A stretch of DNA of 64,000 nt from Bacillaceae bacterium (GTDB lineage Bacteria; Bacillota; Bacilli; JACDOE01). Location: contig JACDOE010000010.1 of assembly GCA_017656255.1 (NCBI GenBank), forward strand, positions 36,400 to 100,399. The letters run 5' to 3'. A model generated the notes under the pieces. It was not told the origin of the DNA. It made no database searches and was given only the letters and a program-made list of their open reading frames with translations. Below are positions 9,011 to 42,704 of this stretch, in pieces. Position numbers and translations under genes: made by a program. Position 1 is the stretch's first letter, and each line of letters starts with the position of its first letter.

Positions 9011-9034
9011 GATCCCGGTTTGAATACCGAGATC
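9011..9034 (-). terminator. terminator after the last gene of the segment-B operon
   Basis: The minus strand reads 'GATCTCGGTattcaaACCGGGATCttgtctttt', starting 28 nt downstream of the stop at 9062. Confidence 0.55.
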
Positions 9035-9061
9035 ATCACAGTAACTTAATACATCTCTAAT

Positions 9062-10869: not shown

Positions 10870-10917
10870 ATTATCACCCCATTATAAAACTCTTTAATTA
10901 TTATCTAACTCGACAAA

Positions 10918-11556
10918 CTAGAATGCATTGTGTTTTCCCATTTGTCTCAGTACTTCTAATCTATCTAAACAACTTGTACATAATAAGCAATGTCGATCCC
11001 CTAAAGCATTACAAGAAAAGGTTTTTTCTATTGGTACTGACATGTTAATTGCCTCATCAATTACAATCTGTCTGTCTAAACCCACAAATGGAGTGATCAA
11101 TTCAAATTCATGAAGTGATTCTGAAAGAGTAGTAGATATGCTCTCTATAAATGACTTACTTGTATCCTTATAAGATCTTGACCCAGTCACACCTATTGCT
11201 ATTTTTCGTATATCGTTTTTATACGCATATGCTCCAGCCAAAGATATTAAAATCATATTTCTGTTCGGAAAAAACTCGGTATTAAACCATTCTTCTGCTG
11301 AATATCCTGATTGAGGACTATCCCCCACAAGTGATCCAGAGCCAAGGTGCTTCATATTAGAAATGTCTAAAAATAAGACTTTATCCGCATACTCATTTCC
11401 TATTATTGATTTAATTGCTCTAATTTCGCCAGACACTGTTACTTGCCCATAGTTAATATGAATAGGGAATATATCGTATTTTCTTTTTCGCAACCAATAA
11501 TAAAGAACAACAGAATCAATGCCCCCTGATAATAATAATACGACTTTTTTTCTCAT
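10918..11556 (-). CDS. QueC-like PP-loop ATPase (7-cyano-7-deazaguanine synthase family, divergent)
   Basis: 212 aa with the 'LLLSGGIDS' PP-loop, 'INYGQ', 'FFPNRNMILISLAG' and a C-terminal Cys cluster 'SCNALGDRHCLLCTSCLDR'. Co-linear with QueC. Its start overlaps the upstream stop (ATGA). Confidence 0.75.
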   Translation of the reverse strand: MRKKVVLLLSGGIDSVVLYYWLRKRKYDIFPIHINYGQVTVSGEIRAIKSIIGNEYADKVLFLDISNMKHLGSGSLVGDSPQSGYSAEEWFNTEFFPNRNMILISLAGAYAYKNDIRKIAIGVTGSRSYKDTSKSFIESISTTLSESLHEFELITPFVGLDRQIVIDEAINMSVPIEKTFSCNALGDRHCLLCTSCLDRLEVLRQMGKHNAF

Positions 11557-12818: not shown

Positions 12819-12823
12819 CGGTA

Positions 12824-13534
12824 TCACCTCACGAATTGAAAGTATCCGTTTCTCCCTAATATCCATAATAAATAGTCCATCTTACCTAAAGGCACTCCAA
12901 TCTTCAAGCAAATAATTCGTAATGCTTCTTCATATTGTAAGTAAACCTTTTCTGTTATGTTTTTAGGAATATTATATCCTAAGTAACCAAGAAATCTTAG
13001 TATATGGATATCCAGTACTGCACAATCATTATTAAATCCTGTATTCCTTAATAGCCAACTAGCTGATTTCATGCCAATACCTGGACATTCACATAGCCAT
13101 GTTCTAGCATCAAATGAATTAAGTTCATTAAGTTTATCAAATAATCTCCAGTGACAGTTCTCCCAAAGCCAATATCCAGCCTTGGATATAACCTTAGGCT
13201 TCGTTTCCACAAATCTATATTTTCTGAACTGGCCGTTACAAGTAATGGGATAAAACTGCTTTTTTGATAACTCTCTCTTTATTACATTTTCAATTATATA
13301 TAAGTTAGATATAGAGGAATAATATTTTGCTTCGATTAACCCTTTATTCTTTAATACATGTAAACCTGATTTGTTTAACTCATAACTGATTCCAAATCCT
13401 CCAAGAACTACGAAAAAAAATTCATCTATAACTTGTTCATTAGATTTTGAAACAAACGAAAACTCTCTTTCAATTGCAATACCATAAGTTTCCCAAAGTT
13501 CTTTTAACACATTGAATGCTCTAGTATTTTCCAT
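12824..13534 (-). CDS. Ogg2/AGOG-like HhH-GPD DNA glycosylase (N-glycosylase/DNA lyase type)
   Basis: 236 aa. 'CPGIGMKSASWLLRNTGFNNDCAVLDIHILRFL' shows a helix-hairpin-helix with the Lys and downstream Asp arrangement of bifunctional Ogg2-type enzymes. Confidence 0.65.
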   Translation of the reverse strand: MENTRAFNVLKELWETYGIAIEREFSFVSKSNEQVIDEFFFVVLGGFGISYELNKSGLHVLKNKGLIEAKYYSSISNLYIIENVIKRELSKKQFYPITCNGQFRKYRFVETKPKVISKAGYWLWENCHWRLFDKLNELNSFDARTWLCECPGIGMKSASWLLRNTGFNNDCAVLDIHILRFLGYLGYNIPKNITEKVYLQYEEALRIICLKIGVPLGKMDYLLWILGRNGYFQFVR

Positions 13535-13540
13535 ATCACT

Positions 13541-13891
13541 TTACGCCTCTACCTCTACTGTAACCTTCGGGTCATGTTGATTCCCTTCTTTTTTTATTAC
13601 AACCCCCTTGTATTCCCACCCTTCTTCAATACATTTTAAGAGCCAACTGTATTTTGGAGGAACGACCCCTATACTAAAATTATCTTTTTCTTTTTTTACT
13701 TCCATGACCGGCAATGTATCATCATTTCTTAAGATAATAGACACTTCATCATTCACAGAAACATTTCTCCACACTGCTTTTTGATTCTCATTAACAATTA
13801 ATAAAATTGTAACTTTTTCACCGCATCTATTTACTGTTTTTCCAGTTCCTCCTCCAAAACCACCAAATGATGAAAAGCCACCACTTCCCAT
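13541..13891 (-). CDS. small protein with Gly/Phe/Ser-rich N-terminus and beta-rich body (possibly HIRAN-like); first gene of the operon
   Basis: 116 aa beginning 'MGSGGFSSFGGFGGGTGK'. Strong AAGGAGGA RBS. Its stop lies 6 nt before the next start. No family was recognised with confidence. Confidence 0.55.
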   Translation of the reverse strand: MGSGGFSSFGGFGGGTGKTVNRCGEKVTILLIVNENQKAVWRNVSVNDEVSIILRNDDTLPVMEVKKEKDNFSIGVVPPKYSWLLKCIEEGWEYKGVVIKKEGNQHDPKVTVEVEA

Positions 13892-14024
13892 ATAAATCCT
13901 CCTTACTAGTTATTTTTTTTTTTGCAATCTTTATAATACTCCAAAACTATTTATATTTAAATTAAATGAAATCTCATTTTGATCACTTCTTTTGTAAATT
14001 GTCTAATGTGCTTAGAATATGTTA

Positions 14025-14860
14025 TTATTTCTCTAGACCAAATTCTCTTTTTAATTTATTAAAGTCATATTCTTTTATTTCGATTGGGATACTAAGGTTC
14101 TTAAGTTTTGACATCAAATCGCTTTTATTAACAACAGGTTTGTCCTCGTAAACAATTGCGAATATCAATTTAAAATTATTTATTGAAGCACTGTCTAAAT
14201 TTTTAGCTGTCTGATATAACGATTCAATAACATTACGAGTTAACTTACCTCGTTTATTATATTTTATCTCAAATCCATAAGTTGAATTATCAGTTTTACT
14301 AATACCATCAATTTCAATTAACTTATCAGAAGATTTAAATGCCATGTGTCTCTGAATAGGAATTTTAAATTCTTGTTCAAGTTTCCTAAACACCAAATCT
14401 TCAGCTAAAAAGTATTGCATTTTGGGATCAACAGTCACTTTGGAAGGCATGTCTAACGTACCCGCTTTATCCTCTTCAATATTATTATCACTAGAAGATT
14501 CTTCAAGCTCTGCTTCTGCTTTCTTTCTTTGTGAATCACTAGTTAATTTTAAGAAATTCCCTTCATCCTTAAAATCACTTGGCGCATATAATTTGGTATG
14601 ATAAAAATCACAAGTCTATAAAATGTAAATAAAACAAGTAAAGGGAAAATTACTATGAAACACACAAGGAACCATTTTTGAGAAACATTTAATTCCGAAC
14701 TAAATTGAAGTACTAATGCTGCTATTCCATAAATTAGTGATATAAATAATGCAATGATACCTAAGGGGTTCTTTGTAAAACCTGATGCACTTCTCGTGAA
14801 TTCTATTATTATCGCTCACCTTCCTTGTAAAAATTTTAAAATGATGCCAACGTTACTCAT
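14025..14860 (-). pseudogene. disrupted membrane-anchored PD-(D/E)xK-like protein
   Basis: The ATG at 14860 begins 'MSNVGIILKFLQGR'. An in-frame TGA follows at 14816-14818. Two hydrophobic helices come next, then a frame change at a T-run near 14600-14610. After that the frame runs into the 141-aa ORF 14025-14450, which has 'IEIDGIS...YGFEIKY'. Confidence 0.5.
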
Positions 14861-15283
14861 TCTTAATACCAATCCAAATCATATCCGTGGACAAAAATGG
14901 CTGGAAAATATAAAACATGTCTGAGTATCAAAAAATTAATCTTTTAATATAACATTCTTCTCTTTTTTCTCATTAACTCCTCCTAGCTTTTGTGCACACC
15001 AATATATTAAAAAACAATCTTCAAAACTATACTTACTCCTTTTAGATCAAAGATCAAAAAATCCCTAACAAAAAAATTAGTGTTTATTCTCAATTGTATT
15101 TCGGTAAAAAAACAGATAATCCCTTTTAGGACAAATAAAAAATAATTAGTAAGGATATCACTCTATACTATATACTTATCTGAATTAATAGGTTTAATTG
15201 GTTTTATAATTATCTTCTTTTAGCTATTTGAAACCCCCCCTGACCCAGCACCACACCAGCATTCTTCCGACATCGCTTCGTGT

Positions 15284-15523
15284 TCACAACCTCTTGACGA
15301 TATGCGCCACCAGGCGAAGGTTATGTTCGATCAGCATATTTCGCGCCTCAACATCTCCCTGTTCCATCAAGCGTAAGTATTTCTCCTCGTCTTCTTCCGA
15401 CAGTGGCTGGGGAAAGGCATTGTTCTTGACGTAGGAGACGAACAGAATCAGTTCTTTGTACAGAAGCGCCAGTAACCCGAGCAGTCCAGACACCCGATCC
15501 CACCTCCAGGAATAGTGCTTCAT
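15284..15523 (-). pseudogene. sigK: sigK 5' fragment (codons 1-77, then 'RL' and a stop)
   Basis: The 79-aa ORF matches intact SigK through '...[10 protein letters not shown]'. Homology ends at 15292. Confidence 0.9.
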
Positions 15524-15561
15524 TTATGCCTATTCCCTTTTGGGCTTGTTTGTGTCTGTAC
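15292..15561. repeat. 270-bp direct repeat (partner at 8656-8925)
   Basis: See the feature at 8656-8925. Confidence 0.9.
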
Positions 15562-15669
15562 CGGAGATTTGTTTTTGCTCTTTTGTTAAAAACTGTTTAA
15601 GCATTTTTAACACTAGCGTTCTCAAATAAATTTAATGTTTCTGTCCTTCACTTCTTTTTTCTACAAGTA

Positions 15670-15710
15670 AACAAACATCCCGCAATACCTTAATAGTAAT
15701 GCGGGATATT
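15670..15710 (-). terminator. terminator of the Hen1-Pnkp operon
   Basis: 'ATCCCGCA-15 nt loop-TGCGGGAT', followed on the minus strand by 'gtttgttt'. Confidence 0.5.
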
Positions 15711-15742
15711 ATGAGAACCTTTTAGACATACCCTTCTTTACC

Positions 15743-18346
15743 TTATAACCTCGGGTCAATTTCTTTCTCTTTACTTACTTCAAATAGCATGTTAGCAACC
15801 ACCTGTTTATATTTATGATCTGACTCATTTATTTTATCTAAATGAAAGGCCAACATCTCTTTCCCAAGTTTGAATTCATTGATAGAGGTTTTTAGTTTCT
15901 TTGAAATATTTTTTTGCTTTAAAAGCTTGGCATATTTGTGTGGAAAGCGATAATCATATCCATAAACAATGGTTAAATAATCTGGATTGCGAACTTTCAT
16001 ATAAGGGGCAGTATCATCTGCCAATTTTTCAGGTTTAATCACGACACCTTCCATTTTTCTTTCTGTTGTCAAAGTCTTAAAAAAGGTTAAAGCTTTTTCA
16101 TAATAATCCTGTTCGTTTAAATCGATCAACATAAATTCATCATCAGATACAAACTTAAAAATTTCCGATGTTGATTCTGCAGGGATGATCTCTTCTCCAT
16201 TTTCCTTGACCATTTTTAAAATATTAAATGGTTTATAGTTAATCTCATCATCCTTTGCATAGAGCTCGATTTGTTCATGATATTTTTGATGGGCTTCCAC
16301 ATGTTTTTCTATTGGTTCATATGACTTTAACATAGTTTGCAACGCCTTATAAGTCTGGTAAGTGGCACCGCCAAACTTTTTAATCAAATCTTTCTTAGAC
16401 ATTGTTTGCTGATCGACTTCATAGTCACTTGATTTATATTGCTCAACAAGTTTTTGAAAGTGGGCATCAAAGCCTTGCTCCTTTAAAAAATCCAACTCTG
16501 TTTGTAAAGCTCTGTCTATAGTCCTAAATTGCTTTTCAATCAATTCCTCTCCCAAAATAGACCAGGGCAGTAATTCACCATCAAACACGATTGTTTTTAT
16601 TTTATTCTCTTTCATGTAATCCGAAAATTTATTTAACAGATTATCATATACCGGAGACAAATCCACTTTCTTAATTTTAAATCCATTTCGACTCACTGCA
16701 TAACATTGATCTAGTTCCCTTGCTAAGTAAATGTTACATCTTGACCCCATGTACTTCGGTTGCAAAACCACTTTATGGACGCCTTTTCTCTTAAAATACA
16801 ACAACCCCTGTTTTAAAGATTCCAATTCATTGCTATCCAAATCTTTGTCAGCCGGCGACATGGTACCAGAAATATAATTAATCTTATTTTTCAAGACATA
16901 ATTAAGGCGCTTTTGGTCCTGTTCATGTAAATCCTCGATGTTAACATGTTTATCTCTTTGTTTAAATAAAGTAGGTAAAGGTTCGTTCCAGTATTTACTA
17001 GTGCTTGTAATTCGCTGCTGTTTAAAAAACGGTCTCCAGGAGTCAATCACAACAGAAGAAAGAACATTTCCATTGGCAGCTCCCGTATCAATGTTAATCT
17101 TATTTTTAATTTGGACTATTTCTTTTACAGCAACATGTCCAAAAATATGATACGGATGATTTCCAACACTCTCTGACTCCAGAAAGTGCAATTGCTCCTC
17201 GTAGGGTTTTTCTCGATCAAGAACAAAGCTTCTTTGCTTTTTCAGAGACGTTTTATCTAACTTCCCTATATATTTGTTTTGACACGGAGCATGTGTCACA
17301 TAAAAGGAAGGCTTTTGTAATCCAATATACCTGTAGAATTCTTTCGAAGATTCAACGAGTCGGAAAAATTTGTGTTTTAAATCCTCATCCTTTTCAAAGA
17401 TTTCTATAGAGTCAAAGTAGTTGTCTAGTAAACTTGAATCTACTGAATTCTTATCAATTTCACCTTTCAAGTATTTGTAAACAAAATTCTCATGATTTCC
17501 TTTTACAAGCACAAAATGATCCATATTTTGTTCAATAAATTCTACCGTCTCTTTGGTAGCATTTCCTTTGTCAATCCAGTCTCCGTTAAGAATAATTTTA
17601 TATTCATCCGTTTTTTCAGTGGATAAAATACGATTATTTTCAATATTAAACCCATAGCTGATAAGCAGCTTTTTTAAATCAGCCACTTTTTCATGAACAT
17701 CTCCAACAATTATATATTTGTGTTCCTGCGGCAAAATATGACTGAGATAATGATCTAAATCCTCTATCATAATTTTATAATTTGCATTCGGTTCATTGGT
17801 ATCAGGGTTATAGAAATCCCGCTCCCTAATTTTGTGTATTCGACGAAATTTTGACTTTGAAATTTGTTTCAGAACCTCTCTTTTGAGACGAGTGACATGA
17901 TTTGAAATTAATCGTCTTGAACCACCTGAAGCATAGAAATCTTCTCTATTTTTAAAATCAAAAAGTATAGCTTCCAGGTTATATTGCTTTTCTTTAGCAA
18001 TTTCCATGATTTGCTCACGGAATTCTTCTGAAAGGCCAATTGTATCAACAATGACGAACTCGGCGTTAATTGGAAATGACGTAACGGCTTTTAGTTTCTC
18101 AAATAAAATATGAAAGGCTTGTTCGCTGCTTTCCATCATAATTCTGTCATGTTTGTCATATTCATGTCCCAAAATATCCTGCCTGATTTCATCAGAGGAA
18201 ATATATTGAACATTGGTTTTAAAGCCCCGATCCTTATCCTGAATAGAAAGTTGAGGCAACAATATTTCTTTAGCAAATGTTGATTTACCGGAATTAGTAG
18301 CACCAATTAACATAAATATGGTATGCATATTTGTTTTTAATTCCAT
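15743..18346 (-). CDS. pnkp: bacterial polynucleotide kinase-phosphatase (Pnkp): kinase + metallophosphoesterase + ligase/adenylyltransferase domains
   Basis: 867 aa. Contains an N-terminal P-loop 'IGATNSGKSTFA', central 'IIVGDVHE...GDWIDKG...GNHE' phosphoesterase motifs, and a C-terminal 'QPKYMGSRCNIY' ligase-like lysine motif. Confidence 0.85.
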   Translation of the reverse strand: MELKTNMHTIFMLIGATNSGKSTFAKEILLPQLSIQDKDRGFKTNVQYISSDEIRQDILGHEYDKHDRIMMESSEQAFHILFEKLKAVTSFPINAEFVIVDTIGLSEEFREQIMEIAKEKQYNLEAILFDFKNREDFYASGGSRRLISNHVTRLKREVLKQISKSKFRRIHKIRERDFYNPDTNEPNANYKIMIEDLDHYLSHILPQEHKYIIVGDVHEKVADLKKLLISYGFNIENNRILSTEKTDEYKIILNGDWIDKGNATKETVEFIEQNMDHFVLVKGNHENFVYKYLKGEIDKNSVDSSLLDNYFDSIEIFEKDEDLKHKFFRLVESSKEFYRYIGLQKPSFYVTHAPCQNKYIGKLDKTSLKKQRSFVLDREKPYEEQLHFLESESVGNHPYHIFGHVAVKEIVQIKNKINIDTGAANGNVLSSVVIDSWRPFFKQQRITSTSKYWNEPLPTLFKQRDKHVNIEDLHEQDQKRLNYVLKNKINYISGTMSPADKDLDSNELESLKQGLLYFKRKGVHKVVLQPKYMGSRCNIYLARELDQCYAVSRNGFKIKKVDLSPVYDNLLNKFSDYMKENKIKTIVFDGELLPWSILGEELIEKQFRTIDRALQTELDFLKEQGFDAHFQKLVEQYKSSDYEVDQQTMSKKDLIKKFGGATYQTYKALQTMLKSYEPIEKHVEAHQKYHEQIELYAKDDEINYKPFNILKMVKENGEEIIPAESTSEIFKFVSDDEFMLIDLNEQDYYEKALTFFKTLTTERKMEGVVIKPEKLADDTAPYMKVRNPDYLTIVYGYDYRFPHKYAKLLKQKNISKKLKTSINEFKLGKEMLAFHLDKINESDHKYKQVVANMLFEVSKEKEIDPRL

Positions 18347-19618
18347 TTACTTTTCACCTCTTGCTTTAACCAAAACTCCCTGAGTGGTATAAACCCCGTC
18401 TACACAATCGCCAATACTTAAATGATGAATCTCAAAATCTCGTTCATCAAAAATCTCACTTATCCATTGTTTAAATTCATTTGTCCCCATTTCCCATTTA
18501 TGATCTTCATGCCGATATTCATCCAGGGAATAATACTTATTAAAATCATGATTTGGAGTCGTTATAATAATGGATTCAAAATGAATGTCATCAAGAATTG
18601 TTAAAATTAGTTTTTTAGCCTCATCCTTCTCCATGTGTTCAATGACTTCTGTAAGGATGACATCAACTAATTCCCCATTGTAATCTTCAATAAAATCCTC
18701 AATGGATCCATAAGTTAATATATTTTCAATACCCCTTTTTTTAATTCTTGCATCCAGCGAACGAATGATATCTTCATCAATGTCAATGGCATAATAGTAT
18801 TTGTCACCTATACTTTCGGAGAAAAGAAAGGCATAATAACCTTCCCCACATCCAACATCAACAATTGGTTTGTTGAAGGGTAATAACTTTTTTATCGCTT
18901 CTCTTCTTTGGTGAGCTGTATGTCCGTAAGAAAAGTTTATGTCATACCTTTGTGTTTCTTCCAGGCTTTCTTTAAATTTTGAAAATAATTTCCTGCTGGT
19001 AAGTATGTTTCGTGCAAACAGATACCTTATAAAAAACGGAGCATCCAGGACTTTAATTTGATTAACATACTTTTCAATCAAACTATCTGTAACATCAAGG
19101 TATTCGTTACCTATTAAAGATAAAAATAAAAACAATAGATTAGCTGTATTCAATAAATCATAAATACTTTTGTTCGTTTTGATTTTAATTGAATAGCTCT
19201 TGTGAGATTGATGAATCATTTCGATAGAGAAATCCTCAAAATGTTTGCTAAAAAAATCTATATATCTTGGTAGTGTGATATGAACCATATTCACAAATAA
19301 TTCATTTTCATATCCTTCAAGATCATTATCATACCGGTTTTTGATTGTGGAATTAAAGAATTCTGTCATTGCGTTTAATGGAAAAAGAGGTGTATTATAT
19401 CTTGAAACATTTAGATATTCAAAGCTTTCTTCTTTATGTTGCTTGTAAGATATCTCGTTGTCAGCGTCCTTAAAATATATATTGTAGGTTTGATCATCAG
19501 AATACCAGCCAAACGCAATTCCCTGTCTGACTGTACGCAACATCATGCCTGAAGCTGGATTTTTGCGTATTAAAAAAGAAAAGTGCGGATTCGTTGATTT
19601 TAACTGAACAATAGCCAT
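18347..19618 (-). CDS. hen1: Hen1 3'-terminal RNA ribose 2'-O-methyltransferase
   Basis: 423 aa. The N-terminal 'FSFLIRKNPASGMMLRTVRQGIAFGWY' is Hen1-type, and the C-terminal SAM motif is 'IVDVGCGEGYY'. The stop codon abuts the pnkp start codon. Confidence 0.8.
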   Translation of the reverse strand: MAIVQLKSTNPHFSFLIRKNPASGMMLRTVRQGIAFGWYSDDQTYNIYFKDADNEISYKQHKEESFEYLNVSRYNTPLFPLNAMTEFFNSTIKNRYDNDLEGYENELFVNMVHITLPRYIDFFSKHFEDFSIEMIHQSHKSYSIKIKTNKSIYDLLNTANLLFLFLSLIGNEYLDVTDSLIEKYVNQIKVLDAPFFIRYLFARNILTSRKLFSKFKESLEETQRYDINFSYGHTAHQRREAIKKLLPFNKPIVDVGCGEGYYAFLFSESIGDKYYYAIDIDEDIIRSLDARIKKRGIENILTYGSIEDFIEDYNGELVDVILTEVIEHMEKDEAKKLILTILDDIHFESIIITTPNHDFNKYYSLDEYRHEDHKWEMGTNEFKQWISEIFDERDFEIHHLSIGDCVDGVYTTQGVLVKARGEK

Positions 19619-19773
19619 CTACTTTCACTCCTGTTATTTCCCTCAATCATTTTCCAATAAACCAATAAACTTTAATTGCTATACTAACCTGATTCCCAGT
19701 TCAAAAGAATAATCAAATAAAATATGAAAAGAGGAAAAATGTAGTCCCCTTTTCCTAGTGCTTGGTAAAAATA

Positions 19774-21105
19774 TCATGCTTTTGAAGATATACAACACAA
19801 CATAAAGAGACCAATTATGAATCCATATAAGATTAAAATCCAGTAGCATAAACTTAACACATACTTTCTTTTGATTCGTCGTCTCATCTGAATCCAATAT
19901 TCAATTATAGAGGCTTTAAGTAATATTCGGACATAAAAAAATTGATATATCATAACTAGCAATATAATCCCCGCTGTCATTATTGTCGCAAGTAACAACT
20001 TGAACCAAAAAGAAACAGTTTGAATATCAATCATCATAATAAATAGTAATATGCTGCCCCCTGTTCCTAATGCAATCAGTAACAGCATAGATAAAGAAGC
20101 AATAATTCTTTTAGATAGGGAAATATGGTCAATATTTAACGTTTCCTCCAAAACTTCTTTGTTCTCCTCATGATTTTTTAGTTCGTCAAGATTTTCAATA
20201 CCTCTTAAATCAAAAAAGTCTCTAAACTTATCTAAAAACCACTTAGCTATATCATGTGCATCTTTTTCAAGTTCTTCAGAACGAAGAGATAATTGGATAT
20301 ACTTTTCATCTTTATCTGTCGTGTCTTCAATAACACCTTTAACTCCCTCTCCCCTTCTATCAATCTGGATATACATAAGTAATTGATCCTCTTTAATTTG
20401 AAAAATTATCTGAATTTCATCCATCTTATCCCATAGAATTTCCTTTATCGGTTTAAAATCGTATATAAACATAAAAGGTTTCTCATCACTATAGGTATAA
20501 AAAGAGTTGAAATTCATTCTCATATTATCAATAGACACATGGGATTCTGTTTTTAAATTCTTTTTATATCCTTGCCAATTTTTAAACTGATACAAAATGT
20601 AAGATAATGAAAAACCAAGTTCTTTCTGAAGAGCTTCAATTACTTTTTGTACCCATGGATGAGGGAAAACATTAATTTCGTTATATTCCTTCCAATTTGG
20701 CCACTTGTCAAGGGAGCATATCGTGTCAATCGATATATGAAAGAATCCTTTAGAAACCAAATCCTTATCTCCATTTTCTGATTCTTTTACATTGTGAACG
20801 GCAATAGGGGTATCATAGGGAACCTGAAAAGAAAAGGAAAATTCTAATTTTTCACCAATTTCAATTTTACGTTCTTTTGCAATCGTAGTTTTTAACAGTG
20901 GGACACGAGAATATATTAAGTCGTCACGGGTATCCATTTTTGTTGTAATCTGAATGACTAATTCCTTAATTATTCTTTCCTGTATTCCTCCCTGAACTAT
21001 TACTTTGCCCGATACTTGTTCACCGGGGCGGTAATAATTTTTATCCAGAATAGTCTTGATTGCTATATCTCCATGTCTTAGCCTCCAAAGCTTTTTTCTT
21101 AACAT
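19774..21105 (-). CDS. Spo0M-like (arrestin-fold) protein with C-terminal multi-pass membrane region
   Basis: The N-terminus 'ILDKNYYRPGEQVSGKVIVQGGIQERIIKELVIQI...FSFQVPYDTPIAV' resembles Spo0M. The last 120 aa or so contain 3-4 hydrophobic helices. Confidence 0.6.
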   Translation of the reverse strand: MLRKKLWRLRHGDIAIKTILDKNYYRPGEQVSGKVIVQGGIQERIIKELVIQITTKMDTRDDLIYSRVPLLKTTIAKERKIEIGEKLEFSFSFQVPYDTPIAVHNVKESENGDKDLVSKGFFHISIDTICSLDKWPNWKEYNEINVFPHPWVQKVIEALQKELGFSLSYILYQFKNWQGYKKNLKTESHVSIDNMRMNFNSFYTYSDEKPFMFIYDFKPIKEILWDKMDEIQIIFQIKEDQLLMYIQIDRRGEGVKGVIEDTTDKDEKYIQLSLRSEELEKDAHDIAKWFLDKFRDFFDLRGIENLDELKNHEENKEVLEETLNIDHISLSKRIIASLSMLLLIALGTGGSILLFIMMIDIQTVSFWFKLLLATIMTAGIILLVMIYQFFYVRILLKASIIEYWIQMRRRIKRKYVLSLCYWILILYGFIIGLFMLCCISSKA

Positions 21106-21294
21106 ATTTTCACCTACTCCTTAAAAGCCTTTTATCAATTTCATATTCTACAAATTTCAACAATTACCTTTAAGTAGAAAAGGCATAAAGAAAGGAGATA
21201 AATATTGCCGCTAATCCCCATGGCTAAATAATGGGCCAAAAGAGAGTAAGATTGCAGATTGTCCTTATTATTATTTTGATCTGGCCAGTACATA

Positions 21295-21643
21295 TCAGGG
21301 TGCTCTATAAGATATTCCTTTTAATCTTTGTAGTCGAATCTTTTGATACCCCCCATCTGAACTCTCGGAAGTGACAATTTCGATGTTAGCACCTAAATCT
21401 TTTAAACGGTTATATAATTATATCCCTTGATAACATTCTTAGAGCTATTTCAAATGTCCCCGATGTCGTTTATAATATGACTACCTTTTCTTATAAACTT
21501 CTTTTCTTCTGCTTTTTGTAGAATATGTTTTAGGTTAACTTCATAATATAAAAACTTGCCCCCAAACAAATTTTTCTCTAATGGTCTATTCCAGGTAATA
21601 CATAATCTGAAAAAGGCCAACCTTTTGTAGGAAAGCCAAACAT
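21295..21643 (-). pseudogene. degraded ORF of unknown family
   Basis: An ATG at 21643 preceded by AGGGAGGG begins 'MFGFPTKGWPFSDY'. The reading then continues only by switching frames at least three times ('ITWNRPLEKNLFGGKFLYYEVNLKHILQKAEEKKFIRKG...', 'YNRLKDLGANIEIVTSESSDGGYQKIRLQRLKG'). Confidence 0.3.
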
Positions 21644-21664
21644 ATAAATACCCTCCCTAAAAAA

Positions 21665-22810
21665 TCAAAAAGATAAACCTTTAAAACCATGAGAGGTGGA
21701 AATGGCCAGGATTCTGTCAGATTCATCCACCTCATGTTTAAGTTGTGTGATAGCACTCCAGATCGTGGCTGACGACGTTTCCAAATACAATCCATATCTC
21801 CCTAATTCCTGTTGACTTTGCAACGCATTTTGAAGGTTAACGACTTTGACCAGGCCCTTTGTATCAGTAATCGTCTTTTTTAACTGATACGTTACCGTTG
21901 ACCCACTGATAGAAGGAAGGCCATCAGATACACCTGCAAAATGATTTCTGTAATCTTCACCTTTTATGACACGCGTTAATCTGGGAAACGGTTCCACCGC
22001 TACAAATTTTGGGATTTCATTAATCCATCCAAGTTCTCTGGCGTCCCTGAAACCGCGATATATGCCCCAGATTAAATCGCCTCGAGAAGCTGGCGCTACA
22101 ATAATACTCGGCAGCGTCTCTTTCAGTTCTTCCATAATTTCATAGGCAATCGTTTTATATCCTTCAACCCCAAACACATGACTGCCGACGGGTGGGTTAA
22201 TGAAATTTGTTGCAGGATACCACCCTTTGTTTGAAACGGCTTTCTCCATACAGTCCCAGCGACTCAATGAAGTTTGCGTATAAATCATTTTGGCTCCGGT
22301 CATTTTAATCGCTTTAGAGTATGTCTTCTGAATGGCATCCGTAGCGATAATGACACATTTCAGACCAGAAGCAGCACTATAACTGGCTATCGACACGCCG
22401 GCATTGCCTGATGAAGCGGCCACCACTGTCGAATACCCCATGTTCTTCGCTCTTGCCATGATGAGAGGACTCATTCGATCTTTGTGAGAACCGGTCGGAT
22501 TTTGAGCTTCATTTTTGATCCAGACATGGCGAACACCGATTTGTCTGGCTAAATCCCTTAATTCCATGATAGGAGTCGATCCTTCTCCCAATGTAGGAAA
22601 AGAACGATAAGGCAATAAATCGGTGTATCTTTGTAAGCCTCTTTGTGACCGGTCAATATTAACTTTTTGATAATCATACAGAGCAGTCAAACTGGCCGGA
22701 TACCCTTCTTCCAGACAAAGAGGACATCCTTTGAAATAATCTTTGACTTCAAAGATAGAATGACATCGAATGCATTGGAAACCGATCATATTTTTGTTTA
22801 ATTGATACAT
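21665..22810 (-). CDS. threonine synthase-like PLP-dependent enzyme with N-terminal zinc ribbon
   Basis: Contains 'FQCIRCHS...CPLC', 'NPTGSHKDRMS' (PLP lysine) and 'SSGNAGVSIA'. I chose the start at 22810 (MYQLNK...) because it sits 9 nt after GAAGGGG; the longest ORF reaches 22894. Confidence 0.7.
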   Translation of the reverse strand: MYQLNKNMIGFQCIRCHSIFEVKDYFKGCPLCLEEGYPASLTALYDYQKVNIDRSQRGLQRYTDLLPYRSFPTLGEGSTPIMELRDLARQIGVRHVWIKNEAQNPTGSHKDRMSPLIMARAKNMGYSTVVAASSGNAGVSIASYSAASGLKCVIIATDAIQKTYSKAIKMTGAKMIYTQTSLSRWDCMEKAVSNKGWYPATNFINPPVGSHVFGVEGYKTIAYEIMEELKETLPSIIVAPASRGDLIWGIYRGFRDARELGWINEIPKFVAVEPFPRLTRVIKGEDYRNHFAGVSDGLPSISGSTVTYQLKKTITDTKGLVKVVNLQNALQSQQELGRYGLYLETSSATIWSAITQLKHEVDESDRILAISTSHGFKGLSF

Positions 22811-35924: not shown

Positions 35925-36815
35925 TCAGCTGACCGCATCGGTAATCATCTTGTGGTGAAACACCTGCTTCAATGCCGCCATCTCTTCGTCCGTCAGAGGG
36001 ACCAGGGGCAGACGAACCGATCCAACCTGAACCCCTGTCAACTCCAGCGCCGCCTTGACCGGAGTCGGACTCGGCGCGGCAAACAGAGCTTTCATCATGG
36101 GGAGCAGTTCCCGATGCAGACGGGCTGCCTCCTGTACCTCACCGTTAAAATAGGCTGATACCATTTGTTTCATTTCGTTACCAATCACGTGAGACGCCAC
36201 GGATACCACACCCCGACCCCCGATGGACAGGACGGGAAGTGTCATGGAATCGTCTCCGCTGTACAGGCTGAAATCAGCATCGGTTTGTTGAATGATCTCT
36301 GCCATCGCGTCCAAATTGCCACTCGCTTCTTTAACCGCAACGATATTTTCAATCCGGGACAGCCGCACGATGGTCTCGACAGAGATGTTGACGACACTTC
36401 TGCCCGGGATATTGTAGAGCATCACCGGAAGTGTTGTTGATTCTGCAATCGCCTTGAAGTGCTGATACAACCCTTCCTGTGACGGTTTGTTGTAATAGGG
36501 AGCCACCAGCATAATCCCATCAACGCCGCAACGCTCCGCTTCTCTTGTCAATGCAATCGATTCCGCCGTATTGTAAGAACCGGTTCCGGCAATAACCGGG
36601 ACCCGTCCGTCAACAACTTCCACCACATGCCTGAATAACTGGATTTTCTCATCCTTCGAGAGTGTCGGAGATTCCCCCGTTGTACCGGCTACGACAAGTC
36701 CGTCGGACCCATTGCTGATCAAATGGCGGATCAGCTTACTGGTTGCCTCGAAATCCACTTCATTGTTCTGATCAAACGGTGTTACCATTGCCGTCAATAC
36801 CTGACCAAAGTTCAT
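35925..36815 (-). CDS. dapA: 4-hydroxy-tetrahydrodipicolinate synthase
   Basis: 296 aa with 'ALVTPF', 'GLVVAGTTGESPTLS', 'VIAGTGSYNT' and 'YNIPGRS'. These are classic DapA motifs. Confidence 0.92.
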   Translation of the reverse strand: MNFGQVLTAMVTPFDQNNEVDFEATSKLIRHLISNGSDGLVVAGTTGESPTLSKDEKIQLFRHVVEVVDGRVPVIAGTGSYNTAESIALTREAERCGVDGIMLVAPYYNKPSQEGLYQHFKAIAESTTLPVMLYNIPGRSVVNISVETIVRLSRIENIVAVKEASGNLDAMAEIIQQTDADFSLYSGDDSMTLPVLSIGGRGVVSVASHVIGNEMKQMVSAYFNGEVQEAARLHRELLPMMKALFAAPSPTPVKAALELTGVQVGSVRLPLVPLTDEEMAALKQVFHHKMITDAVS

Positions 36816-36900: not shown

Positions 36901-37140
36901 AAAAAAGCAACAGCGGAGGGTTTCCGTTGTTGCTTTAGAAACAATACCGGATCGTTTCCTTAGCGTGAGATAGCCCTCCATATAGCAACAAGACTATATG
37001 ACAGTTCTGCACTTATTCAGTGCAAAACCAGCTGCAGGAATCATGAGCTTCCCGAAGCTTCGGCAAATCCCCCTTTCCACAACCTTCACCGGAGCTCATT
37101 CTCCTCTGATTGTGTACTGATGGTCTTTGCGCCTCTATCC
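36901..37140 (-). ncRNA. lysine riboswitch (L-box) with terminator, leader of dapA
   Basis: The minus strand reads 'GATAGAGGCGC...GAGCTCCGGTGAAGG...GCCGAAGC...CTGG...GAACTGTCA...TGGAGGGCTATC'. The terminator 'AGCAACAACGGaaaccctCCGCTGTTGCTTTTTT' follows at 36901-36936. Confidence 0.85.
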
Positions 37141-37186
37141 TCACTCCATATATATTACTGAAGCAGGAAATATTGAATTTTCCTGT

Positions 37187-37240: not shown

Positions 37241-37280
37241 TTTATAAAATCAGGCCGTTACTCCGCAAGGAGTAACAGCC
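37241..37280 (-). terminator. terminator of MCP gene 1
   Basis: 'GGCTGTTACTCCttgcGGAGTAACGGCC' on the minus strand, followed by a T-rich tract. Confidence 0.6.
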
Positions 37281-37296
37281 TTAAATGTAAGATCTG

Positions 37297-39033
37297 TTAC
37301 ATTTTGAATCGGGACAGGGACTGATTCAATTCTTCCGCCATCTGGGCCAGGTTCTCGGCCATGCTGTTGATCTCCTGCATGGACGCGTTCTGCTGTTCCA
37401 TCGAGGCAGACAGTTCTTCCGTTCCCGCGGATGATTCTTCCGTCACGGCAGCGATGTCTTCCACCGCTTTCACACCCTGTTCCACTCTTCCCGTAATCTG
37501 TTCCGTTGCCATCGACACCTGCTGGATCTTGCCGCCCATCTCCTGGATGATTGCCGCAATCTCTTCGAAGGTCTTGCCGTTGGTTTCGATTACTTCCGAA
37601 CCTTCTTTGACCTGATCCACCGCTTCCTGCATCACCGTACCGGCTTCTTCTGCTTCCTTCAGCACCGAATGAACGATATCGGCGATCTCATTGGTAGATT
37701 TACCCGCCTGTTCTGCCAGTTTCCGTACTTCATCAGCCACCACGGCAAACCCTCTTCCCTGTTCACCGGCACGGGCTGCTTCAATCGCTGCATTCAGTGC
37801 CAGCAGGTTGGTCTGCTCGGCTATTTCATTGATCACTTTCAAGATTTCACTGATCTCTTTCGACTTTTCACTCAGCGTAAACACCACATTGGCCGATTGT
37901 GACACTTTCTGTTCGATGATTTGCATCTGTTCGATGGACTGATGGGCACTTTCCGCTCCCTGCCTGGATGCTTCATCTCCCCGGCGGGAACTTTCTTCCA
38001 TCTCCGTGGCACTGGCATTAATCTGTTTGATCTCTTCGTCGATCTGCTGCATGATCTCCAGCGCACTGCCTGCCTGCTCCGCCTGTGTGGTAGCACCTGC
38101 CGCCAGTTCTTCGGTGGTGGCAGATACCTGTTCGATTCCCTGGGTGATCTGGTTGGACGAAGCCGTCAGTTCCTCACTGGAGCCCGTCACCTTCTCAGAA
38201 ATGGTGCTGGCATCCTTGATCAGGGATCTCAGGTTATCCACCATGGCGTTCATGGCCTCGGACAGCTGACCGATCTCATCTTTCGAACGCACTTTCATCT
38301 GCGAAATCGCCAGGTTACCGTCCGCCAGCTGTTTCATTTTCTCCGTAATCTGTACGATCGGCGTACCCATGCGTCCGGCAAACATATAAATCACCACGAT
38401 ACCCACCACCAGTGCAATACCGAGGGTCAGCATCAACACCTGCAGAATACGGGTCGCTCCGCTGTTATAGTCCTCCATGTAAGAACCGGCACTGATCACC
38501 CATCCCCAGTGAGGGTCCAGTTCGCTGTAAGAAATTTTCGGCGCCAGTTTATCGGGGTTATCGGGAAGCGGCCACTCGTAATAGGTGAAACCTCCGCCTT
38601 CCTGAGCCTTTTTAATAAAATCACGAATAAAATAAAAACCGTTTTGTGTCTGGAAATCCCACATGTTTTTCCCTTCTACTGCGGGATGAGCCAGGGTATT
38701 CCCTTTTTGATCCACAACGGTAAAGTACCCGCGGGCCCCCAGATCGATCGTCTTATCGACCGGGCGCTTGCCCTCACTGTTTTTTTCACCGAGAATCTGT
38801 ACTTTGACCCGCTCCTGAGCTTCTTCGAGGGTCAGGGTTCCTTTCTGTACTTCCTCATCCAGCGTGGCAATCATTTTTTTAACCATCCGTACATTATTCT
38901 GGAGTCCCGTCGCTCCGGCATCATTCAGCTCATTCTCGGCGATCTGATAGGCTATCACGCCGATGATGAGACCGGGTATCACCAGTAAAGCAAGGCTGAT
39001 CAAAATAAGTTTCGCTTTAATGTTAAGTTTCAT
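37297..39033 (-). CDS. methyl-accepting chemotaxis protein (dCache-type sensor, HAMP, MA domain), paralog 1
   Basis: 578 aa with an N-terminal TM helix, a periplasmic Cache-like region, a second TM helix, a HAMP domain and the highly conserved signalling hairpin '[40 protein letters not shown]'. Confidence 0.9.
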
Positions 39034-39074
39034 TGTCCTACTCCCATCCTTTTAATCTGTCTTTGTATATGAAT

Positions 39075-39235
39075 ATAAAAAGACTATTTCAACCATATGA
39101 AATAGCCTCCGTTACCTGTAGATGCACGTTCCCTGAAGCTGGTTCTCTCTTCGGTAACCCGGCATCTGTTCGATCTGATTTCAGACACCTGGGCTTTGCG
39201 CCCCCATCTCTCAATGAGTTTGCCGTTTCGGAGTT
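39075..39235 (-). ncRNA. c-di-GMP-I (GEMM-I) riboswitch with terminator, leader of MCP gene 1
   Basis: The minus strand reads 'GGCAAACTCATTGAGAGATGGGGGCGCAAAGCC...CCGGGTTACCGAAG', with a GNRA-capped P1a and the GCGCAAAGCC core. A hairpin 'CTATTTCAtatggTTGAAATAG' plus a T-run follows at 39083-39105. Confidence 0.8.
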
Positions 39236-39287
39236 CATTATGTATTTGTGACAAAAACATGAAAGTTTTTCCTGTAAAACAATTAAT

Positions 39288-39316
39288 AATATACGACAAT
39301 TTTTTATATTTTTCAA
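39288..39316 (-). promoter_or_regulatory. sigma-A-type promoter of the riboswitch/MCP-1 transcript
   Basis: Minus strand: TTGAAA, 17 nt, TATATT. The block is conserved at 41460-41488. Confidence 0.55.
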
Positions 39317-39431
39317 CATCTGCAGTGTAAAATTGCAGTTAAAAAGTACTATTTCCTTTGTACCAGTAGGTGATCAGGGAATTCGCAAAAAATTATTTTG
39401 CACGTCGTTAAATAGTCTGTCTGAAACAAAA

Positions 39432-39464
39432 TAAAAATGCCGCCACTCCCGAAGGAGTAACGGC
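39432..39464 (-). terminator. terminator of MCP gene 2
   Basis: 'GCCGTTACTCCttcgGGAGTGGCGGC' followed by 'atttttatttt' on the minus strand. Confidence 0.6.
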
Positions 39465-39479
39465 ATGATCTGACCGCTG

Positions 39480-41219
39480 TTACATTTTGAATCGGGACAG
39501 GGATTGATTCAATTCTTCCGCCATCTGGGCCAGGTTCTCGGCCATGCTGTTGATCTCCTGCATGGACGCGTTCTGCTGTTCCATCGAGGCAGACAGTTCT
39601 TCCGTTCCCGCGGATGATTCTTCCGTCACGGCAGCGATGTCTTCCACCGCTTTCACACCCTGTTCCACTCTTCCCGTAATCTGTTCCGTTGCCATCGACA
39701 CCTGCTGGATCTTGCCGCCCATCTCCTGGATGATTGCCGCAATCTCTTCGAAGGTCTTGCCGTTGGTTTCGATTACTTCCGAACCTTCTTTGACCTGATC
39801 CACCGCTTCCTGCATCACCGTACCGGCTTCTTCTGCTTCCTTCAGCACCGAATGAACGATATCGGCGATCTCATTGGTAGATTTACCCGCCTGTTCTGCC
39901 AGTTTCCGTACTTCATCAGCCACCACGGCAAACCCTCTTCCCTGTTCACCGGCACGGGCTGCTTCAATCGCTGCATTCAGTGCCAGCAGGTTGGTCTGCT
40001 CGGCTATTTCATTGATCACTTTCAAGATTTCACTGATCTCTTTCGACTTTTCACTCAGCGTAAACACCACATTGGCCGATTGTGACACTTTCTGTTCGAT
40101 GATTTGCATCTGTTCGATGGACTGATGGGCACTTTCCGCTCCCTGCCTGGATGCTTCATCTCCCCGGCGGGAACTTTCTTCCATCTCCGTGGCACTGGCA
40201 TTAATCTGTTTGATCTCTTCGTCGATCTGCTGCATGATCTCCAGCGCACTGCCTGCCTGCTCCGCCTGTGTGGTAGCACCTGCCGCCAGTTCTTCGGTGG
40301 TGGCAGATACCTGTTCGATTCCCTGGGTGATCTGGTTGGACGAAGCCGTCAGTTCCTCACTGGAGCCCGTCACCTTCTCAGAAATGGTGCTGGCATCCTT
40401 GATCAGGGATCTCAGGTTATCCACCATGGCGTTCATGGCCTCGGACAGCTGACCGATCTCATCTTTCGAACGCACCTTCATCTGCGAAATCGCCAGGTTA
40501 CCGTCCGCCAGCTGTTTCATTCTCTCCGTAATCTGTACGATCGGCGTACCCATGCGTCCGGCAAACAGGTAAATGGCCACGATACCTACCACCAGCGCAA
40601 TGCCGAGGGTCAGCATCAATACCTGCAGAATACGGGTTGCTCCGCTGTTATAATCTTTCATATAGGAACCGGCAGCCACTATCCAACCCCAGTGGGGATC
40701 CAGTTCCGTGTATGCAATCTTGGGCGCAAGAGAGTCCGGGTCATCCGGAAGCGGCCAGTCATAATAAGTGAATCCTCCGCCCTCCTCCGCCTTCTTTACC
40801 ATATCACGGGCAAAGTAGTATCCGTCTTCTGTTTTTGTATCCCACAAACTCTCTCCCTCAAGCAGTGGATGTGCAATAAGGACTGCTTTTCGCGACATAA
40901 CAAAATAGTAACCGTTTTCACCAATGTCAATCGTTTTATCGATCGGGCGCTTGCCCTCACTGTTCATTTCTCCCAGAATCTGTACCTTCACCCGCTCCTG
41001 GGCTTCTTCGAGGGTCAGGGTTCCTTTCTGTACTTCCTCATCCAGGGCGGCAATCATCTTTTTTACCAGGCGGACATCATTTTTCAATCCCGTAGCCCCG
41101 GCGTTGTTCAATTCGTCCTTGGCAATCTGAAAGGCCGTCATCCCGATGATCAGGCCGGGGACCGCCAGCAAAGCAAGGCTGATTAAGATAAGCTTGGCTT
41201 TAATGTTGATGAGTTTCAT
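39480..41219 (-). CDS. methyl-accepting chemotaxis protein, paralog 2
   Basis: 579 aa. The C-terminal 330 aa or so match paralog 1 exactly, while the sensor domain has diverged. Confidence 0.9.
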
Positions 41220-41254
41220 ATGTAGCTTCCCATCCTTCTTTTCTTTTTGATGAT

Positions 41255-41410
41255 TATAAAAAGGCTATTTCAACCCGTTGAAATAGCCTTCGTTACCTGC
41301 TGTTGATGACTCTTGATGAGGATTTCTCACGGTAACCCGGCATCTTTCATCTACTTCACAGACACCAGGGCTTTGCGCCCCCATCTTTCGATGAGTTTGC
41401 CTTTTCTAAA
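41255..41410 (-). ncRNA. c-di-GMP-I (GEMM-I) riboswitch with terminator, leader of MCP gene 2
   Basis: The minus strand reads 'GGCAAACTCATCGAAAGATGGGGGCGCAAAGCC...CCGGGTTACCGTGAG'. The hairpin 'GGCTATTTCAacgggTTGAAATAGCC' plus a T-run follows. A compensatory change occurs in P1a relative to copy 1. Confidence 0.8.
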
Positions 41411-41459
41411 TCCTGTTGAAACGACATATCGTAAGATATTCCCGATTCATTTATACTAA

Positions 41460-41488
41460 AATATACGACAATTTTTGTTATTTTTCAA
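41460..41488 (-). promoter_or_regulatory. sigma-A-type promoter of the riboswitch/MCP-2 transcript
   Basis: Minus strand: TTGAAA, 17 nt, TATATT. Confidence 0.55.
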
Positions 41489-41577
41489 CAATTATTGTGT
41501 CGAGTGGGATAATAAAGGTTTATATCCTATGATAAATTATTATAGCCCCGATCACCACGGTTGGGCCGGCCGGGACT

Positions 41578-42075
41578 TTAATTTTTTACCTCATAGAAAC
41601 GATGCTCAAATGTCAGCTTGTCCCCAACAGTCAAGACACCATATGAATAGCGGGGTTGTCTGCGTTTATCCGTTGGAGAGCCCGGATTAAACAAAATGAT
41701 TCCGTCACGTTCTTCAAGCAGCGGAATATGCGAATGACCGAAAATAATGGCATCCACCTGTTCCCCCTTAAAGGCATCCACCGCCCGCTGTAAGGTAGTC
41801 TTCCCCCGACCGTCCCCGTGAACGAGACCGACTCTGAACCCTTCCAGAGAGAGAATCTTCTTTTTGCCAAACCGCCGGATGATCTCTTCGCCGTCTACAT
41901 TACCTGCTACCCCTTCAACCGGGGCGTAGGTTCTAAGTAACTCATAGATCTCCATGGTCTGCCAGTCTCCGGCATGGATGATGAGATCCGCCTGTTCCAG
42001 CTCCTCCACCAGTTGATGGGGGAATTCCTTAGCGCGACGCGGCATATGGGTATCGGAAACAACACAGACTCTCAT
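41578..42075 (-). CDS. YfcE/MJ0936-family metallophosphoesterase
   Basis: Contains 'VVSDTHMP', 'IIHAGD', 'GNVD', 'LVHGD' and 'FGHSHIP'. Confidence 0.8.
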   Translation of the reverse strand: MRVCVVSDTHMPRRAKEFPHQLVEELEQADLIIHAGDWQTMEIYELLRTYAPVEGVAGNVDGEEIIRRFGKKKILSLEGFRVGLVHGDGRGKTTLQRAVDAFKGEQVDAIIFGHSHIPLLEERDGIILFNPGSPTDKRRQPRYSYGVLTVGDKLTFEHRFYEVKN

Positions 42076-42704
42076 GCCTGACGACCTCCTGAAGGTAACA
42101 TTTTTAAATAGGTCAACACCTGATCGGGATGATCAATCAGGTTCCATCCCCTGGCCTGCAATTGTTCTTGATGGACACGATTAAATGACTCCGCCTCTTC
42201 GATAATACTTCTTTGCCACGTTTTCAATTGCTGCCGGGTTTCTTCCGCAGCCTGATCTTCAATGGTATGACAGACAAACGAGCGGCAGATACTGGTCTTG
42301 TAACGGGGTGGCAGGCCGCACCCCTTTCCTGAAACAAAAAAAGAACAGATCGAATATGTCATCTTGAAATCCACCGCGCGATAACGGGTGGAAGCATTGG
42401 CCAGCCATTTCCTGTATTTCTCCTGTTCCTCTGAACGGTAAAACCGGTCATCCACCTGTGCTTCAACCAGGATCTCGTAAGGGAAGATACGTCGTTTCGG
42501 ATGATGATAGATATGATTCATAAAAAAATCGTCATCTCCATCCCGCACCATTTTATAGATTTCAAACAGAGTAAACACCGGCTCATACCGGCAGCACCCC
42601 ACATTTTCCATATCGTCAAAAACAGGCGTGAAATCCGGATCACCGCAGTGCATACACAGCGAGGAAAGGATCTGTTTGTTGTCACCGTCCCAGCGGCAGG
42701 ACAT
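42072..42704 (-). CDS. Cys-rich hypothetical protein (possible YkgJ/UPF0153-like cysteine cluster)
   Basis: 210 aa with 'CMHCGDPD...VGCCRYEP' and 'CSFFVSGKGCG...SICRSFVCH'. It overlaps the downstream gene by 4 nt. Confidence 0.4.
   Translation of the reverse strand: MSCRWDGDNKQILSSLCMHCGDPDFTPVFDDMENVGCCRYEPVFTLFEIYKMVRDGDDDFFMNHIYHHPKRRIFPYEILVEAQVDDRFYRSEEQEKYRKWLANASTRYRAVDFKMTYSICSFFVSGKGCGLPPRYKTSICRSFVCHTIEDQAAEETRQQLKTWQRSIIEEAESFNRVHQEQLQARGWNLIDHPDQVLTYLKMLPSGGRQA

Follow-up and report, generated by a model that had tools for sequence, protein, structure and literature searches.

This report concerns two adjacent methyl-accepting chemotaxis protein (MCP) genes, here named mcp1 and mcp2, found in a 64,000-nucleotide (nt) stretch of contig JACDOE010000010.1 (positions 36,400 to 100,399; GenBank assembly GCA_017656255.1), which is referred to below as the window. 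The source is a metagenome-assembled genome (MAG) labelled “Bacillaceae bacterium”, and the contig measures 103,489 bp. The 3′ halves of the two genes, which encode the signalling part of the receptors, are identical at all but one position over 999 bp, whereas the 5′ halves, which encode the sensors, have diverged widely at silent sites. The favoured conclusion, with a probability of about 0.8, is a recent gene conversion that made the 3′ signalling halves uniform within an older tandem duplication of 2.1-2.2 kb. The features on which this reading is built are listed here with their window coordinates; aa denotes amino acids, ORF an open reading frame, TM a transmembrane segment and dS the synonymous divergence.

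37297-39033, minus strand: mcp1, methyl-accepting chemotaxis protein of 578 aa, intact ORF, exact match to protein MBO8173001.1
39480-41219, minus strand: mcp2, methyl-accepting chemotaxis protein of 579 aa, intact ORF, exact match to protein MBO8173002.1
37294-38292, minus strand: putative converted tract of mcp1, covering codons 248-578, the stop codon and the next 3 nt; 998/999 positions match mcp2
39477-40475, minus strand: putative converted tract, mcp2 copy, 998/999 identical to the mcp1 copy
38293-38480, minus strand: graded transition zone in mcp1 (end of Cache, TM2 and the first part of HAMP before codon 248); mcp2 partner at 40476-40663
38749-38853, minus strand: low-divergence island in the mcp1 sensor (codons 61-95), dS 0.34; mcp2 partner at 40932-41036

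The genes lie head-to-tail on the minus strand with an offset of 2183 bp between the copies, and a blastn search of the window revealed no further MCP copies. Both are transmembrane Cache-HAMP-MCPsignal chemoreceptors. Pfam domains, all above their gathering scores, are sCache_2 (aa 36-196), HAMP (aa 218-269) and MCPsignal (aa 361-531) in mcp1; in mcp2 the order is TM1, sCache_2 (aa 38-197), TM2, HAMP (aa 218-270) and MCPsignal (aa 362-532). The MCPsignal matches (PF00015) score 152.0 bits in mcp1 and 152.4 bits in mcp2 against a cutoff of 34.6, HAMP (PF00672) scores 53 bits in each, and sCache_2 (PF17200) scores 150 and 135 bits, respectively. Two hydrophobic stretches, at about aa 8-28 and aa 196-218 as judged by eye in the translations, flank the sensor, and the approximately 308 residues C-terminal of HAMP correspond to 44 x 7, a length that would fit the 44H heptad class of Bacillus MCPs.

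Near-identity of the signalling half

An initial annotation of this DNA had described 995 bp of perfectly identical sequence at the 3′ ends of the two genes. The near-identity stands, but the perfection does not, as the interval in question (37297-38291) scores 994/995. The single mismatch in the 999-bp tract is a C at 37321 against a T at 39504, a synonymous change in a CAG/CAA Gln codon. The longest exact run between the genes is 971 bp (37322-38292).

A run of this length is far outside what a random placement of differences produces. When the 156 differences between the genes were permuted in 20,000 shuffles, the maximum run was 148 nt, and the observed 971 nt thus form a contiguous low-difference tract of the type sought by GENECONV. 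The same is seen when only third codon positions are considered: 323 in a row are identical, against a maximum of 81 in 20,000 shuffles. At the third-position difference rate of the sensor (0.438), the probability of one difference or fewer in 333 third positions is about 1e-81.

Divergence was also estimated between mcp1 and mcp2 by the Nei-Gojobori method, as nonsynonymous (dN) and synonymous values. Codons 1-197 give a dN of 0.16 and a dS of 1.23, codons 198-247 give 0.027 and 0.22, and codons 248-578 give 0 and 0.0045. The signalling module is not constrained in this way elsewhere. Over 993 nt, its third positions are only 28-46% identical to those of homologs in relatives. Among MCP paralogs of a related MAG, the same module shows 35-53% third-position identity in 14 of 15 pairs, with one exception at 77%, the pair L006/L007 that is described below. 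Silent sites of the signalling module are therefore free to vary among relatives, and constraint at the nucleotide level cannot explain the identity of mcp1 and mcp2. The gene conversion between tandem paralogs that the initial annotation proposed is well supported by the contrast in dS within one gene pair, by the permutation tests and by the unconstrained third positions of the module in relatives.

Borders of the tract and diverged flanks

A blastn alignment of 37244-39318 with 39431-41490 shows 87.7% identity over 2089 nt, and the whole unit is paralogous. Identity falls off in steps upstream of the tract: it is 97.8% over the first 92 bp (38293-38384), 86.5% over 38385-38480 and 74.3% over the sensor at 38481-39024. 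A stretch of about 150 bp with about 97% identity had been reported past the tract; this value holds for the first 92 bp only, and the whole interval 38293-38442 is 93.3% identical. The Cache-like sensor is clearly diverged, as was noted originally, both in its nucleotide identity and in its saturated silent sites.

It had further been claimed that identity stops at a domain boundary. This is not the case. The border of exact identity is at codon 248, which is located within HAMP, and from there identity declines in a graded manner through HAMP and TM2. The graded transition zone is most simply read as the product of older conversion events that had different 5′ end points. Within the sensor, an exact run of 44 nt at 38819-38862, with a chance probability of about 3e-4, overlaps the low-divergence island at codons 61-95, and this island is probably an older and shorter conversion tract.

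The leaders, promoters and terminators had been described as paralogous, and they are: the blastn alignment spans them, and both copies have a TTGAAA-17-TATATT site and a 3′ terminator hairpin. The leaders and 3′ terminators have diverged to an extent that matches the sensor, and the 3′ untranslated region (UTR) also displays indels. Older divergence is thus found on both flanks of the tract, in the sensor and leader on one side and in the 3′ UTR and terminator on the other. Diverged flanks on both sides favour an old duplication with one internal conversion tract over a recent duplication.

Leaders and transcription signals

The paralogous leaders are predicted cyclic di-GMP class I (c-di-GMP-I) riboswitches with a terminator, a point overlooked in the initial annotation. 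The signals of the two units are as follows.

41460-41488, minus strand: promoter-like site of mcp2, TTGAAA-17-TATATT, within a 31-mer 94% identical to the mcp1 copy
41328-41411, minus strand: c-di-GMP-I riboswitch aptamer in the mcp2 leader (RF01051, 53.3 bits, gathering score 35)
41253-41291, minus strand: leader terminator hairpin and U-tract of the mcp2 expression platform (GAAGGCUAUUUCAAC..GUUGAAAUAGCCUU-UUUAUAAU)
39437-39466, minus strand: intrinsic terminator hairpin 3′ of mcp2, a 13-bp stem followed by TTTTATTTTG
39288-39316, minus strand: promoter-like site of mcp1, TTGAAA-17-TATATT
39150-39234, minus strand: c-di-GMP-I riboswitch aptamer in the mcp1 leader (RF01051, 46.7 bits, gathering score 35)
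39079-39110, minus strand: leader terminator hairpin of the mcp1 expression platform
37252-37281, minus strand: terminator hairpin 3′ of mcp1, paralogous to that of mcp2 but diverged, with a compensatory change in the stem (second pair G-C against U-A)

Both aptamers span RF01051 model positions 1-87 of 87. In each unit the aptamer lies 3′ of the promoter-like site and 5′ of the start codon, and a GC/AU hairpin with a U-tract comes between it and the ribosome-binding site. Just 5′ of the leader terminator, both mcp1 and mcp2 have a GGUAAC box that is complementary to the GGUUACC at the 3′ end of the aptamer; the box is present in four of five aligned leaders. In the minimum free energy folds, aptamer-like helices and the leader terminator coexist, and folding of both leaders did not yield a convincing terminator/antiterminator alternative from which an ON or OFF switch could be derived. 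Each receptor may be gated by c-di-GMP through its own predicted riboswitch. With a terminator 3′ of mcp2 and a promoter in front of mcp1, the two genes are read as separate transcription units.

Sensor domains

Both sensor domains match solved sCache_2 carboxylate sensors (2QHK/4EXO, 4K08 and 5G4Y) with E-values from 4e-17 to 4.5e-08. The published description of the PscD pocket of Pseudomonas syringae (PMC5062169) was used as the reference for residue mapping. In the alignment, the equivalents of the carboxylate-anchoring residues Tyr90, His103, Tyr143, Trp145 and Lys156 of PscD are kept in both paralogs. In this respect the sensors of mcp1 and mcp2 resemble those of the sCache_2 carboxylate chemoreceptors PscD, McpP of P. 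putida, Adeh_3718 and the Vibrio parahaemolyticus protein 2QHK/4EXO. In contrast, positions that line the pocket differ from PscD and also between the paralogs: Trp92 is replaced by Thr in mcp1 and Phe in mcp2, Asn94 by Val and Met, and Phe126 by Ile and Ala, while Met129 is Phe in mcp1 and Met in mcp2. This pattern fits two carboxylate-type receptors with different specificities. A diversification of ligand sensing between the paralogs is plausible from the residue comparison, but the sensor dN/dS of about 0.13 is no demonstration of positive selection.

Relatives and comparable mosaics

Exact-protein look-ups for mcp1 and mcp2 found no conspecific or independent assembly on record, and scans of genome and metagenome contigs revealed nothing closer than 63-68% identity. 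A second genome carrying both genes was not found in these look-ups and scans. The nearest relative is the MAG GCA_041686735.1 (“Bacilli bacterium 15dZY3.bin.90”), with MCPs that are 62-68% identical. Its locus L019 has a lysine riboswitch with dapA, an M29 aminopeptidase gene and a single sCache_2 MCP gene led by a c-di-GMP-I riboswitch, in a gene order that differs from that of the window. It is the probable single-copy counterpart of the locus and is partly syntenic with it. Leaders with the same layout are found upstream of MCP genes in L019 and in two further related loci, L024 and L006.

The sensor halves of mcp1 and mcp2 are 75% identical in aa sequence, and the best outside match among 5.8 billion proteins is at most 65.5% identical. 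The two sensors are each other's closest sequences, which argues for divergence in situ rather than import of a foreign sensor; a foreign donor for one of the sensors was sought in the same proteins and rejected, as none was found. The initial annotation also proposed concerted evolution, which in the strict sense would make paralogs of one genome closer than orthologs of different genomes in the converted segment alone. The analysis here covered a contrast in branch lengths, 75% against 65% identity in the sensor and 99% against 69% in the signalling half, with a nearest relative that has a single copy at a partly syntenic locus.

GC-biased gene conversion was considered as well. The GC content at third codon positions is 0.63 in the tract and 0.54-0.57 in the sensor, but the single-copy L019 gene differs between the two regions in the same way (0.53 against 0.45), which leaves no signal specific to such a bias.

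Similar mosaics are found in other genomes of the group. One case is a pair of dCache_1 MCP genes in Peribacillus loiseleuriae FJAT-27997 (L009, 9371-11485, and L010, 9371-11485), which share a scaffold at a distance of about 1.2 Mb. Their dS is 0 over codons ~260-500 against 0.2-0.5 in the N-terminal part of the sensor, and the tract starts within the sensor. In the related MAG, silent divergence between L006 and L007 decays toward the 3′ end, and the sensors differ by Pfam, with dCache_1 in L006 and no sensor domain found in L007; these two genes are suspected to be a conversion pair. Together the P. loiseleuriae pair and the L006/L007 mosaic indicate that partial homogenisation of MCP signalling modules recurs in the group.

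Locus L006 has a second c-di-GMP-I riboswitch at 12151-12237, downstream of its riboswitch-led MCP gene. It was examined as a possible mark of a tandem MCP, but it precedes instead a gene for a 332-aa HD-domain protein (12312-13310). This protein may be an HD-GYP-type c-di-GMP phosphodiesterase, and the arrangement suggests a c-di-GMP feedback unit beside a chemoreceptor.

Probable history of the pair

The following order of events would account for these observations. A full unit of 2.1-2.2 kb, consisting of a promoter, a c-di-GMP-I riboswitch with leader terminator, an sCache_2-HAMP-MCPsignal gene and a 3′ terminator, would have been duplicated in tandem long ago. The sensors, leaders and terminators of the two copies would afterwards have diverged to synonymous saturation. 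Very recently, about 1 kb, from the middle of HAMP to 3 nt beyond the stop codon, would have been copied from one gene to the other by homologous recombination without crossover, and all divergence in that stretch would have been wiped out. Earlier events with other end points may have left the graded HAMP/TM2 transition and the low-divergence island of the sensor.

The mechanism we infer is that a break or gap in one of the genes was repaired in a RecA-dependent way, with the paralog as template. The tract would end where the flanking homology is too poor for heteroduplex extension, that is, in the sensor at about 74% identity and in the 3′ UTR with its indels. The homogenised core would remain recombinogenic while the flanks drift on, and such a border could reinforce itself with no need for selection at a domain border. 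The outcome would be two carboxylate-type receptors with different pocket linings and one common signalling and adaptation module, each separately transcribed. If the two repeats were to cross over, the 2183-bp unit would be lost and exactly mcp2 with the mcp1 terminator would remain, and the reciprocal product would amplify the unit. The retention of both genes points to usefulness of both sensors or to a recent origin of the present state. In this account the sequence pattern, the domains and the riboswitches come directly from the analysis, and the recombination mechanism, the ligand class, the direction of riboswitch control and any selective value of homogeneity are inferred.

Alternative explanations

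Some points weigh against the conversion reading or limit it. A de Bruijn-graph assembler, as may be applied to a MAG such as this one, can merge near-identical repeats and write one consensus twice, and the surviving differences are confined to the 5′ edge of the tract and to at most 27 nt from its 3′ edge, as a collapse would leave them. The true interior identity could be somewhat less than 100%, and copies of the 2183-bp unit could exceed the number assembled. The protein look-ups and contig scans provided no second assembly or conspecific genome to support the tract. Either copy may have been the donor, and an unequal crossover followed by deletion would leave a pattern formally like that of gene conversion.

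A first alternative accepts the exchange but regards the identity of the signalling halves as kept by selection rather than as a neutral by-product of recombination. The riboswitch-gated receptors would need the same HAMP-distal signalling and adaptation part in order to mix freely in arrays, and the repeated core would serve as a recombination platform on which sensor heads are tried and discarded through deletion or amplification of the 2183-bp unit. The mosaics in P. loiseleuriae and the related MAG, and the recurrence of riboswitch-MCP units in the lineage, are compatible with this idea, which is considered unlikely.

A second alternative is an assembly artefact, whereby either the tandem is not real or similar but distinct copies were collapsed into one consensus that was traversed twice. 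A MAG contig of this size with no independent assembly or conspecific genome leaves room for such an error, and the two retained differences at the repeat edges (37321 and 38293) are what is expected after bubble-popping. However, the repeat has four distinct border junctions, with two different upstream entries and two different downstream exits, and the spacer at 39034-39479 bridges the end of mcp2 and the mcp1 leader, so that a linear path needs at least two tandem copies. Neither ORF is interrupted, and promoter, riboswitch and terminators are present separately for each gene. Collapse is also expected only for copies that were already very similar, in which case silent divergence would still fall more than ten-fold in the tract. 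Like mosaics occur between two MCP genes in the P. loiseleuriae FJAT-27997 assembly as well. An artefact is regarded as quite improbable.

A third alternative, to which we likewise give little credence, is a recent duplication of the whole unit after which the leader and sensor, as well as the 3′ flank, of one copy were replaced by a diverged allele from another strain or species. This would also produce an identical core between diverged flanks, and the poor sampling of the lineage, in which the next relatives are 62-68% identical, makes an unsampled donor possible. It requires two replaced segments, one on either side of the tract, against a single conversion tract; none of the 5.8 billion proteins has a sensor that resembles mcp1 or mcp2 more closely than these resemble one another, and the graded 5′ border and the internal island better fit repeated internal exchange.

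Finally, the 3′ identity could have arisen without recombination if purifying selection on the DNA or RNA sequence itself were extreme, be it for codon usage, for mRNA structure or for an antisense gene on the other strand. In its favour, no part of MCPs is better conserved in protein sequence than the signalling domain, and long antisense ORFs overlap that domain (37921-38988 and 40104-41186, both plus strand). This explanation is effectively refuted, for the third positions of the module vary freely among relatives and in 14 of the 15 related-MAG paralog pairs, and codon bias cannot yield a dS of 0.0045 and of 1.23 within one gene pair.

Comparison with known systems

Partial gene conversion between bacterial paralogs is a textbook process, known from tufA/tufB in Salmonella and from rRNA operons, and a 2005 review by Santoyo and Romero is said to cover gene conversion between bacterial paralogs. 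Both examples resemble mcp1 and mcp2 in that non-reciprocal recombination homogenises a segment, which then stands out by having far fewer silent differences than the sequence around it. They differ in that whole genes are kept alike, whereas in mcp1 and mcp2 only the signalling half is affected. The mcpA-tlpA-mcpB-tlpB cluster of Bacillus subtilis also consists of tandem receptor genes whose C-terminal domains are similar while their sensor specificities differ. However, the sensors there are dCache_1, the C-terminal halves are far from identical in DNA, and we know of no c-di-GMP riboswitch at that cluster.

A literature search on gene conversion among MCP genes returned almost nothing specific: matches from Treponema and Halobacterium were irrelevant, and only Tlp2, Tlp3 and Tlp4 of Campylobacter jejuni were directly comparable. 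These receptors have identical signalling domains and periplasmic Cache sensors that are about 30% identical (PMC9769880). As in mcp1 and mcp2, a shared signalling module is combined with diverged sensors in one genome. The C. jejuni genes are, however, dispersed, with dCache_1 sensors and a 28H signalling domain and without a riboswitch, whereas mcp1 and mcp2 are in tandem and have sCache_2 sensors that are still 75% identical.

For the leaders, the closest parallel is the Bc1 c-di-GMP-I riboswitch, which precedes mcpE in 98.7% of 155 sequenced genomes of the B. cereus group and regulates by means of expression-platform terminators (PMC11218506). Both cases combine a class I c-di-GMP riboswitch and an intrinsic-terminator platform in the 5′ UTR of an MCP gene in Bacillaceae. 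Whereas Bc1, with its dual terminator, regulates one gene, the window has two riboswitch-MCP units in tandem, in which only one terminator follows each aptamer in the leader and the GGUAAC box is conserved.

Neighbourhood of the genes

Immediately downstream of mcp1, a lysine riboswitch (RF00168, 130.9 bits; 36963-37145, minus strand) with a terminator-like hairpin is located ahead of dapA (35925-36815, minus strand). The same riboswitch-dapA pair is present in the related locus L019, where the riboswitch is at 6883-7063. Just upstream of mcp2 is a gene for a YfcE-like metallophosphoesterase (41578-42075, minus strand), the start of which is overlapped by 4 nt by the end of a Cys-rich ORF of 210 aa (42072-42704, minus strand) that has no Pfam match.

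The antisense ORFs opposite the two MCP genes could encode 355 aa (37921-38988, plus strand) and 360 aa (40104-41186, plus strand). Rather than real genes, they are most likely an effect of the codon composition of the MCP genes.

At some distance, a low-GC island extends from about 4000 to 22000, with 31-35% GC against about 50% in its flanks and all genes on the minus strand. It contains a Pnkp/Hen1 RNA-repair pair (15743-18346 and 18347-19618), an HD-domain protein, a PfkB-nucleoside 2-deoxyribosyltransferase fusion, a sigma-70 family protein, an MFS transporter and a methyltransferase. The island looks like a horizontally acquired block, possibly related to defence or repair.

Significance

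The process proposed here is an ordinary evolutionary one. Its components, namely MCP mosaics, partial conversion and c-di-GMP riboswitch-MCP units, are already known, and the locus does not challenge current understanding. It should be noted that a direct repeat of 1 kb, with copies 2.2 kb apart, is a sequence that short-read MAGs may collapse, mis-phase or mis-count. In the cell, the same repeat is a substrate for deletion of mcp1 or amplification of the unit.

Control of the Bc1-mcpE type, as predicted from the leaders, would extend past the B. cereus group to a poorly sampled Bacillaceae lineage with several riboswitch-led chemoreceptors per genome. The pair itself provides a clean and quantifiable case of the evolution of a chemoreceptor repertoire, in which the sensing half diverges and recombination, on the reading favoured here, keeps the signalling half uniform.

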